Assembly: GCF_013315695.1 (NCBI RefSeq)
Contig: NZ_CP054353.1
Length of the DNA: 64,000 bases
Origin: Escherichia coli
GTDB taxonomy: Bacteria; Pseudomonadota; Gammaproteobacteria; Enterobacterales; Enterobacteriaceae
Direction: 5' to 3' (one strand)
Each line of letters starts with the position of its first letter. Within the stretch, counting starts at the first letter, position 1. The position numbers are program-made. Positions 55,307-58,300 of the stretch are shown piece after piece.

Positions 55307-58300
55307 TAGCCCCGTCACGTAAAGCTTGTCGAGTTGACGGGCGGCATCATATGAATTCCGCCCGAATGTGTCAACGGCAAATTGCAACGTGTAGTTTCAA
55401 TCGCTGAAAAATCAGGCAAATGAACAATTTTGGAAAACCGCTCGCATTCAGTAGTTATTCATGTCACGGTTTCCTGTAAAGTGGTGTTATAAAATGAACT
55501 ACTAATAGACCCACATACATTCAGGGAATTGTTATGTTCAAGGAGAGGATGACGCCAGATGAACTTGCCAGACTGACCGGCTATAGCCGCCAGACCATTA
55601 ATAAATGGGTACGCAAGGAAGGCTGGACAACGTCACCAAAACCAGGCGTCCAGGGTGGCAAAGCTCGACTGGTTCACGTCAATGAACAGGTTCGTGAATA
55701 TATTCGCAATGCTGAACGTCCAGAAGGTCAGGGAGAAGCGCCAGCCCTTTCTGGTGATGCGCCGCTTGAAGTGTTGCTGGTGACACTGGCGAAAGAGATG
55801 ACGCCAGTTGAACAAAAACAGTTTACATCCTTGCTTCTGCGGGAAGGGATTATCGGATTATTACAACGCTTAGGGATTCGCGATAGCAAATAATATGAAA
55901 AGATTACGCAATAAAATGACCACCGAAGAACTGGCTGAATGCCTCGGTGTGGCTAAACAAACTGTTAACCGTTGGATCAGAGAAAAAGGCTGGAAAACGG
56001 AAAAATTTCCTGGCGTGAAAGGCGGTCGTGCCAGACTTATTCTGGTCGATACGCAAGTTTGCGATTTTATTCAGAACACGCCAGCCTTCCATAACACGCC
56101 GATGCTTCTGGAAGCCGAAGAACCCCTTGCCGAATACGCACCGGGGATTCGCACTCCTGCTTATCGGCAAATCATCAGCGCAATAGACAACATGACTCAC
56201 AGTGAGCAGGAAAAAGTTGCGCAATTTTTGTCACGCGAAGGAATTCGTAATTTCCTTGCTCGTCTCGACATAGATGAATCAGCTTGACATCCTCCACGCC
56301 CTGAATGACGAGGATCCCTGCTACGTTCAGGCTGTCACCTGAATCATTTCGGTGGGTTCCTGCTTCAACGAGCGGCCTGACTGCACCATCTCTCCACAGG
56401 CAAGAACGGCGTGCCCCGCCGCTAAAATGTTACGAGCGCCATTTACATCAGCGTTCGCTGTATATCCACATGCCTGGCATCTGAATTTACTTTGTGACAG
56501 GCGATTTTCTTTCGCTGTATGACCACAGCACGCGCAACGCTGGCTTGTGTACGCTGGCGGAACAGCAAGCACCTGACCGCCACGCCAGAGCTGCTTGTAC
56601 TCAAGCTGGCGGCGCATTTCATACCAGCCCTGATCCAGTATCGAACGGTTTAAACCTGATTTTGCCCGGACATTGCGCCCCGGCTGGCTGACCGTACCCG
56701 CTGCTGACTTTGACATGTTGCTGACCTTCAAATCCTCAATGACTATCATTGCGTGGTTTTTGCTGACGGTCGTTGTGACTTTGTGAAGGTAGTCCCTGCG
56801 GATATTTGCGATACGGGAATGCAGTCGCTGTATTTTGCGTTTCTGCTTCTGCCAGTTATTGCTGAATTCGACCTTGCGGCTTAACTGTCGCTGAAGTCTC
56901 GCCAGCGTCTTCTGGTTTTTCTGAAAACTGTTTACAGGCTCAAAGACTGTGCCATCTGACAGCGTGGCGAGTTTAGCCACGCCAGCATCCAGCCCGACCA
57001 TTGATGCTGAAGGGTGAACCGGAGTGGATACTTCACTTTCTGTCTGAATACTGATGTACCACTTACCGCAGGACTGGCTGACAGTGACATTTTTCACAAC
57101 ACCCGTGACCTGACGGCTGTTCCGGTAGCGCATCCAGCCAAGTTTCGGCAGAAAAATACGGCTGTTTTCCTGATCGAGCTTAACGCCCTGCGGGTAGCGG
57201 AATGCATCATTCTGTCCCCGCTTTTTGAATCGGGGAAAAGCAGCCCGCTTCTGGAAGAAGTTTTTGTAAGCCCGCTCAAGGTCTTTCAGTGACTGTTGCA
57301 ATGGCTGTGAGGGCGAATCTTTAAGCCATTGCATTTCAGTGGCGTTTTTCCACTCAACCAGCCAGGAAGCCATTTTCCCGTAAGGGATGTATTTATTACC
57401 GGCCTCATGATTCTCATTCTGAAGCGCCAGAGCACGATTGAAAACGAAACGACATGCGCCTGCGAAGCGCCTCATTTCACACTCCTGTTGACCACCTGGT
57501 CTTAACTGGAATTTAAATGCCTGTAATCGTTTCACAGGTCAAATGATACTTTGGTCTGTGAAAAAAGAAACCGATATCCGGCGTGGAAGGCATTGTGTTT
57601 TCCTGATGCATGTTCACCTGGTCTTTGTCCCAAATACCGACGCCAGATTTTTGACCATGACGCGACAGAAAAACTACGCACTTACTATTCAAATGTATGT
57701 GCTGATTTTGAAGCTGAACTGGTTGAAATGGATGGCGAACCAGATCACGTCCATTTGTTAATTAACTATCCTCCCAAACTGGCGATATCCAGTCTGGTAA
57801 ACAGCCTCAAAGGCGTATCGGGTAGGTGACTGCGACGAGATCGACCAGATATTGCAGTCAGGTATTACTACAAAGGCGTTTTGTGGAGTCCTGGCTATTT
57901 TGCCAGTAGCTGCGGAGGTGCGCCAATATCCGTCATCCGCCAATACATTGAACAACAGCAAACACCTGGTCAGGTGGAAAACCGCGCCTTATATCCCCGC
58001 CCTGAAGGACGGGGTTTTACGGCGCACCGGATAAATAAAAAACGGCAGGGGTATCTCTCCTGCCGTTTATCTTTTATGCGCTAATTACTGCTGATTTTCG
58101 CGTTCAGCAATAAAAGCCAGCGCTTTGTTGATACGCTCGATACTGCGGGTCTTACCGATTGCGTGAACGGTAACATCCAGCGCTGGAGACTGCCCCGCAC
58201 CGGTTACGGCGACACGCAGCGGCATACCAACTTTACCCATACCCACTTCCAGCTCATCCGCCGTCGCCTGAATAGCGTGATGAACGTTTTCAGCGGTCCA

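Follow-up and report, generated by a model that had tools for sequence, protein, structure and literature searches.

What is the insert of about 1.75 kb that separates yfeD from gltX in the Escherichia coli contig NZ_CP054353.1 (assembly GCF_013315695.1), and why does it carry an intact nuclease gene beside a broken transposase gene? In K-12 MG1655 the gap between yfeD and gltX is 51 bp and has no insert. We addressed these questions within a 64,000-nucleotide stretch of the contig, hereafter the window, starting from an earlier interpretation made without database searches (the sequence-only reading) and comparing the locus with other E. coli genomes and with characterized members of the same transposon family.

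Identity and boundaries of the insertion

The sequence-only reading had proposed an IS200/IS605-family element of about 1.75 kb inserted between the two genes, and comparison with K-12 bore this out. The empty site in K-12 reads GAATCAGC/ATAAATAAAAAACGG, whereas the occupied site in the window reads GAATCAGC, then the element (TTGACATCC...GCGCACCGG), then ATAAATAAAAAACGG; the junctions therefore place the element at 56284..58030, a length of 1,747 bp. The bounds first suggested (56290-58084) were slightly off, with 58031..58084 being host DNA. The element, its ends and its surroundings are as follows.

56284..58030, minus strand: complete IS609 element (IS200/IS605 family), 1,747 bp; minus-strand order left end, tnpA (antisense), tnpB, right end
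58031..58034, minus strand: target motif (TAM) TTAT, directly 5′ of the left end
57995..58014, minus strand: left-end hairpin
56294..56313, minus strand: right-end hairpin
55534..55893: yfeC, in the left neighbour region
55895..56287, plus strand: yfeD, with the last codon base and TGA stop (56284..56287) supplied by the right end of the element
58085..59500, minus strand: gltX, flanking the element
58040..58068: gltX terminator hairpin, host DNA within 58031..58084

The ends were set by the K-12 empty-site comparison together with no fewer than 15 other insertions that arose independently within the family. All of these begin with CCGGTGCGCC and finish with GGAGGATGTCAA, and such ends recur across E. 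coli chromosomes, plasmids and IMG/VR contigs. From 5′ to 3′ on the minus strand come TTAT, CCGGTGCGCC at the start of the left end, tnpA in antisense, tnpB, GGAGGATGTCAA at the close of the right end, and then flanking sequence beginning with GCTGATTCATC. The motif 5′ of the left end was TTAT at 15 of the 17 independent insertion sites and TTAC at 2, and comparison with the K-12 and CB8671 empty sites revealed neither target duplication nor loss of bases. At the yfeD side, the junction (56283/56284) changes the 3′ end of the gene from TCA GCA TAA in K-12 to TCA GCT TGA in the window.

In place of terminal inverted repeats, the element has imperfect hairpins near both ends. The left-end hairpin, read directly from the sequence, is CCCCGTCC-TTCA-GGGCGGGG, and the right-end hairpin is CCTCGTCA-TTCA-GGGCGTGG, with a T-T mismatch at 56311 in the window copy; the two have the core GTCCTTCAGGGCG in common. 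Together with insertion 3′ of a short motif without target duplication, this anatomy is standard for the IS200/IS605 family.

The sequence-only reading had treated the element as possibly unnamed. Judged by its near-identity to the K-12 copy between ydcO and ydcL (98.1% over the full 1,748 bp) and by the RefSeq name of tnpA at the same site ('IS609 family transposase'), it is IS609, of which a single copy is listed for K-12 MG1655 (PMC5009759). Thus K-12 does lack the insert at yfeD-gltX, as that reading had assumed, yet it carries the same element elsewhere in its chromosome.

Occurrence in E. coli genomes

Copies were counted by searching 5,426 complete E. coli genomes with the region by megablast. 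A near full-length IS609 copy was present in 4,836 of these (median, three matching locations per genome), and further copies were located at yedK, between yfaV and yfaY, beside yidH and on plasmids. The junction of yfeD with the right end occurred in 535 genomes (approximately 10%), O157:H7 among them, whereas a contiguous empty yfeD-gltX site was found in 4,641 (approximately 85%), including K-12. The sequence-only reading had called for this comparison and would have been contradicted by K-12-like genomes carrying the same sequence at the locus; the empty site proved to be the common state. The element changes faster than its surroundings, with 13 differences over its 1,747 bp versus none over 2,400 bp of flank.

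Hundreds of genomes already have the nuclease at the yfeD-gltX site annotated in RefSeq under the name 'RNA-guided endonuclease InsQ/TnpB family protein', and some records at the site also carry an 'IS200/IS605-like element IS609 family transposase' flagged as a pseudogene. The element, its name, the nuclease annotation and the insertion site are therefore all in public records and none of them is new. An intact tnpB beside a missing or broken tnpA is, moreover, the usual state of the IS200/IS605 family, and the identification of IS609 here has little importance beyond correct annotation.

A disabled transposase gene

The start codons of tnpA and tnpB lie on opposite strands and only 7 bp apart. 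From 57543 on the plus strand, three ORF pieces taken together look like an IS200-type transposase.

57543..57973, plus strand: tnpA pseudogene (Y1 HUH transposase)
57629..57630, plus strand: 1-nt tnpA deletion, shifting the frame at about codon 30
57827..57829, plus strand: in-frame TGA at tnpA codon 96, ancestrally TTA (Leu), between the HUH motif and the catalytic tyrosine

The sequence-only reading was right that this divergent tnpA is disabled, and wrong that it is split across three frames: the three pieces occupy two frames, two lesions are involved, and the gene is barely decayed. The reconstructed TnpA scored 148 bits against NCBIfam transpos_IS200 (cutoff 55) and matched the IS608 and ISDra2 TnpA structures (E = 1e-20; 3e-20 for IS608), and the remnant retains a recognizable HUH motif (HVHLL) and YIEQQ tyrosine helix. 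The Y1 HUH transposase characteristic of IS200/IS605 elements is thus recovered upon reconstruction, the gene in the window copy being a pseudogene. Where relatives have the natural tnpA stop, the window has CAG (57971-57973).

We mapped the lesions on an alignment of six copies. The base deleted near codon 30 is missing only in the window and in MS 21-1, whereas the codon-96 TGA is common to the window, the K-12 ydcO copy, the yedK copy and the same-locus copy L001, and occurs also in the TUM14771 copy. Codon 96 is TTA in KE40, in relatives 85% identical to the window copy, and in the O157:H7 copy at the same yfeD-gltX site, where tnpA is uninterrupted. Among exact 61-mers around this codon, TGA was found in 2,596 records and TTA in 2,330; tnpA copies that may still be functional are thus common in E. 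coli and could act in trans. The window copy is immobile by itself because of its frameshift and premature TGA.

The presence of the same TGA in copies at at least three loci would be easily explained if those copies still moved. The stop codon is followed by C, and UGA followed by C is a weak termination context in E. coli, so a leaky stop might yield a trickle of TnpA that leaves TGA-bearing copies attenuated and not dead. We consider this very unlikely: the window copy is also frameshifted upstream of the TGA, and readthrough would therefore not rescue it; gene conversion, for which there is clear evidence among IS609 copies, accounts for the spread of the TGA just as well; and the K-12 IS609, in which the TGA is the sole tnpA lesion, showed zero transposition in mutation-accumulation lines (PMC5009759).

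An intact nuclease gene under purifying selection

The opposite strand carries the nuclease gene.

56327..57535, minus strand: tnpB (insQ-type RNA-guided endonuclease), 402 codons, GTG start, uninterrupted

The sequence-only reading had described an intact 402-residue TnpB with its RuvC motifs and zinc finger, a description open to refutation by a frameshift or stop upon careful translation, and every comparison upheld it. The protein has full-length Pfam matches to HTH_OrfB_IS605, OrfB_IS605 and the Cas12f1-like TNB zinc ribbon, scored 391 bits against NCBIfam guided_TnpB (cutoff 100), and aligned to the ISDra2 TnpB (8H1J/8EXA) with E = 1e-53. From that alignment, we identified the RuvC residues D183, E267 and D363 and the zinc-finger cysteines C334/C337 and C353/C356, so that the D-E-D triad and the zinc-ribbon cysteines by which TnpB (OMEGA) nucleases are recognized are all present.

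Across the family and among E. coli copies, tnpB is under purifying selection: dN/dS was 0.066-0.085 against relatives 83-85% identical (family-wide value approximately 0.07) and ranged from 0.14 to 0.57 between E. coli copies. For the window copy itself, comparison with its nearest relative (MS 21-1) gave 5 synonymous and 8 non-synonymous changes (dN/dS 0.45), too few for selection to be distinguished from neutral drift. Two of its substitutions, T68M and K223E, are private, the positions being T and K/R, respectively, in 29 relatives.

The latter figures bear on the possibility that the whole element is a dead relic, with tnpB intact merely for want of time and its protein and RNA doing nothing now. 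A dN/dS not significantly below neutral is what such a relic would give, and the two private changes at otherwise conserved TnpB positions, the weakened right-end hairpin and the inactivity of the K-12 IS609 in mutation-accumulation lines point the same way, as does a tnpA with only two lesions, which implies recent decay. Against this stand the retention of the full 402-codon tnpB in each of nine chromosomal copies sampled from E. coli (divergence 1.6-2.4%, five loci), whereas tnpA, about a third of the length of tnpB, has at least three independent disabling lesions among sampled copies; the clearly non-neutral pattern of some tnpB pairs, such as K-12 versus O157:H7 with 18 synonymous and 9 non-synonymous changes; and the intact catalytic residues of TnpB. 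On balance, we regard a wholly inert element as rather unlikely. The alternative put forward by the sequence-only reading, that TnpB is kept for its own nuclease function, fits the intact E. coli ORFs and their dN/dS below 1; for the window copy, we infer it.

A predicted guide RNA at the right end

If TnpB acts as an RNA-guided nuclease, the element should also encode its guide RNA, which the sequence-only reading had placed where the tnpB 3′ end meets the adjoining end of the element, running in the direction of yfeD. This placement gained support from a conserved and covarying predicted RNA.

about 56284..56423, minus strand: predicted omega RNA scaffold, overlapping the right end and the final 97 nt of tnpB
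56268..56283, minus strand: predicted 16-nt guide GCUGAUUCAUCUAUGU, host DNA that abuts the right end on its 3′ side, antisense to the final yfeD codons

The scaffold nucleotides hardly vary, even among relatives with TnpB identity as low as 62%. A consensus structure built from an alignment of 36 distinct sequences contains four stems, with 95% of cells paired versus 38-54% when the partners were slid. Eight of its pairs show compensatory change on both sides and none of 500 shuffles reached the observed covariation score, values to be read with the caution that the structure was derived from the same alignment, that the sequences are related, and that the terminal hairpin doubles as a DNA signal for TnpA. 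In the right-end stem, one pair appears as A-U, C-G and U-G and another as G-C and C-G among the 36 sequences. The single-sequence fold of the right-end region was no better than that of shuffled sequence (z = -0.74), and the structural argument therefore rests on the alignment.

At gathering thresholds, Rfam identified only tRNAs near the element. A permissive search returned sub-threshold matches to RAGATH-18 (RF03064; 29.5 bits at 56357..56400, threshold 44.9) and HgcC (14 bits). RAGATH-18 is the guide RNA of IS607 TnpBs, and the window motif has its core (CCUGUGGAG...CGUUGAAGCAGGAA, minus strand); the internal stem is 27 nt shorter, however, and the motif falls within the tnpB ORF, unlike the guide RNAs of IS607, which are located outside the reading frame (PMC11061315). 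The match is a resemblance and not membership.

The sequence 3′ of GTCAA, where the guide is expected, differs at every independent insertion. The predicted guide of the window copy matches the empty allele of CB8671 (TTAT/TCTGATTCATCTATGT) at 15 of 16 positions and that of K-12 (TTAT/GCTGATTCGTCAATAT) at 13 of 16; within the window its only match is the junction itself, where TCAA stands in place of TTAT. The tnpB 3′ end and right end thus fit a guide (omega) RNA, and on computational evidence the element has the structured 3′-end RNA followed by a variable guide that marks TnpB (OMEGA) systems.

Two other matches in the window were discarded. A right-end-like match at 6284..6295 (one mismatch) is attributable to chance, since it lacks the conserved scaffold core, and a REP-like match to the left-end pattern near 48,430 is spurious.

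The position of the guide also bears on possible domestication of TnpB by the host, for instance as a TldR-like RNA-guided transcription regulator no longer acting for the transposon. Most E. coli genomes carry IS609 tnpB at fixed places in the chromosome, and it persists even where tnpA is dead; both facts would suit such a role. TldR proteins, however, are without nuclease residues (PMC10705468), and they are recognized by RuvC loss or C-terminal truncation and by a guide directed at a host promoter. Here the protein is full-length with its RuvC triad and zinc finger intact, the guide is whatever host DNA flanks each insertion and so differs at every site, both transposon ends and the TTAT target are kept, and the yfeD-gltX insertion is confined to about a tenth of genomes. 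We rejected a TldR-like regulator because the nuclease residues are intact, and find domestication of any kind extremely improbable.

Retention by homing as the proposed explanation

We estimate a probability of roughly 70% for the reading in which this is an IS609 copy with a disabled tnpA whose TnpB and guide RNA favor its retention by homing. The element would have inserted as single-stranded DNA 3′ of TTAT, between the end of yfeD and the terminator shared by yfeD and gltX, and could now be mobilized only by TnpA from a different copy of IS609. Its tnpB still encodes a full-length RuvC nuclease. ISDra2 and GstIS608 suggest, by analogy, that the 3′ end of the tnpB transcript and the right end together fold into a guide (omega) RNA, with the last 16 nt or so copied from the flanking yfeD sequence. 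The TnpB-RNA complex could then cut an element-free copy of the locus, where TTAT is followed by GCTGATTCATCTATGT, and repair from the occupied sister chromosome would restore the element and so favor its retention. The anatomy agrees with the published model for related elements: the guide RNA of IS605-family TnpB is made from the tnpB transcript (PMC10278001), IS605-family TnpB cleaves targets preceded by a motif (PMC8612924), and cleavage of the vacant donor site promotes element retention (bioRxiv 10.1101/2023.03.14.532601). For the window copy, we infer guide-RNA expression, TnpB nuclease activity and homing by analogy with these systems.

Several observations count against an active nuclease in this copy. 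They include T68M and K223E, the right-end T-T mismatch and the z = -0.74 fold; a promoter scan without a match on the tnpB strand, which leaves no candidate promoter for tnpB or the guide RNA; and the lack of an obvious ribosome-binding site just 5′ of the GTG start. The papers found in searches on the activity of IS609, InsQ or ydcM are mostly genome surveys, with one purification of an 'IS609' TnpB for which no notable activity was reported (PMC12781874).

On a further reading, TnpB-guided cutting is no leftover and may still be operating in natural E. coli populations, where it might drive gene conversion between copies or counter incoming DNA with the empty allele. The basis for this reading is that tnpB is intact at several chromosomal sites in most E. 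coli while tnpA is disabled, and that the element is outpacing its flanks; we regard it as unlikely. With the site occupied in some genomes and empty in most, the locus is a possible natural test case: matched occupied and empty alleles exist, and TnpB-driven retention could therefore be studied in the native host.

Comparison with related elements

The K-12 IS609 (insQ/tnpB, between ydcO and ydcL) agrees with the window copy in gene layout, ends, TTAT target and the tnpA codon-96 TGA. It differs in occupying another chromosomal site, and the window copy adds the 1-nt tnpA deletion and a few private substitutions; because the flank differs, the guide of the window copy also differs from that of K-12.

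By comparison, ISDra2 of Deinococcus radiodurans is far more distant than any of the E. coli IS609 copies, with similarity clear only at the protein level. Its TnpB has the same domain order and RuvC D-E-D residues, and the two elements are also alike in a guide RNA predicted from the tnpB 3′ end and right end and in a motif 5′ of the left end. That motif is TTGAT in ISDra2 and TTAT in the window, the tnpA and tnpB of the window copy are divergent, unlike those of ISDra2, and TnpB activity was shown for ISDra2 and is predicted for IS609.

The IS605 and IS608 elements of Helicobacter pylori resemble the window copy in their Y1 HUH TnpA, in their end hairpins and in insertion 3′ of a tetranucleotide without duplication. 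Their target is TTAC and not TTAT, and tnpA is inactivated in the window; in IS605 of H. pylori, tnpA and tnpB are divergent as well. The same family includes 1,336-bp derivatives on plasmids and phage contigs that carry tnpB only (IS1341-like), with the same ends, TTAT target and RNA scaffold; many of the plasmid relatives are of this kind. These derivatives have no tnpA at all, and in this they differ from the window copy with its almost complete tnpA remnant.

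Variation among IS609 copies and the state of tnpA

Comparison of the window with its nearest relative, the locus from MS 21-1, revealed no differences in the sequences flanking the yfeD-gltX insertion (0 of 900 and 0 of 1,500), and 13 differing positions among the 1,747 of the IS609 element itself (window 56284..58030). Several of the element variants in these two genomes are those of IS609 copies at other loci, and the MS 21-1 bases at 57311, 57314 and 57316 agree with the copy at yedK; on sequence comparison, such matches point to gene conversion among IS609 copies. Copies sharing an insertion site were 28-36 nt apart, as distant as copies at different sites.

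In O157:H7 PV15-279, the copy occupying this same position between yfeD and gltX has an uninterrupted tnpA (L067, 2248..2673) with TTA at codon 96, so the disabling TGA is not fixed at this locus; RefSeq still flags the PV15-279 gene as partial. The position of the natural tnpA stop (window 57971..57973) is TAG in the yedK copy and TAA or TAG in 85%-identical relatives, and reads CAG in the window, as in most E. coli copies. Because CAG replaces this stop, translation of an otherwise intact tnpA would continue across the left end and into the host sequence.

Structural features within the element

The start codons of tnpA and tnpB lie on opposite strands with 7 bp between them (window 57535..57543). 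With this spacing, the tnpA promoter must lie inside tnpB and the tnpB promoter inside tnpA, and the 5′ transcripts would overlap; we identified no promoter. Position 56311 in the stem of the right-end hairpin (56294..56313) is part of a T-T mismatch in the window, where K-12 has A-T and more distant relatives have a compensated U-G or C-G pair. This mismatch could weaken both recognition by TnpA and the 3′ stem of the predicted guide RNA.

The yfeD junction and flanking transcription

The insertion exchanged the yfeD stop codon, with TCA GCA TAA in K-12 versus TCA GCT TGA in the window, and the stop supplied by the element leaves the YfeD protein at its pre-insertion length.

56284..56287, IS-derived terminal bases of yfeD (last four bases, formed by the IS right end)

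Since the old terminator is no longer directly downstream, yfeC-yfeD transcripts would run into the element (window 55895..56330). There they would be antisense to the tnpB 3′ end as well as to the predicted guide RNA, and could thereby interfere with guide-RNA production. The 3′ part of yfeD (56100..56283) falls into two allele classes across E. coli, approximately 10% apart; 1,578 records match the K-12 allele at 90-95% identity, and the window carries the non-K-12 class.

Relatives carrying tnpB only

Versions of 1,336 bp containing only tnpB, with the same ends and TTAT target as IS609, occur widely, both on IncI2/IncF plasmids and on phage-like contigs (plasmid and IMG/VR loci L007, L008, L009, L011 and L017-L023), and the window TnpB matches 3,359 plasmid records.
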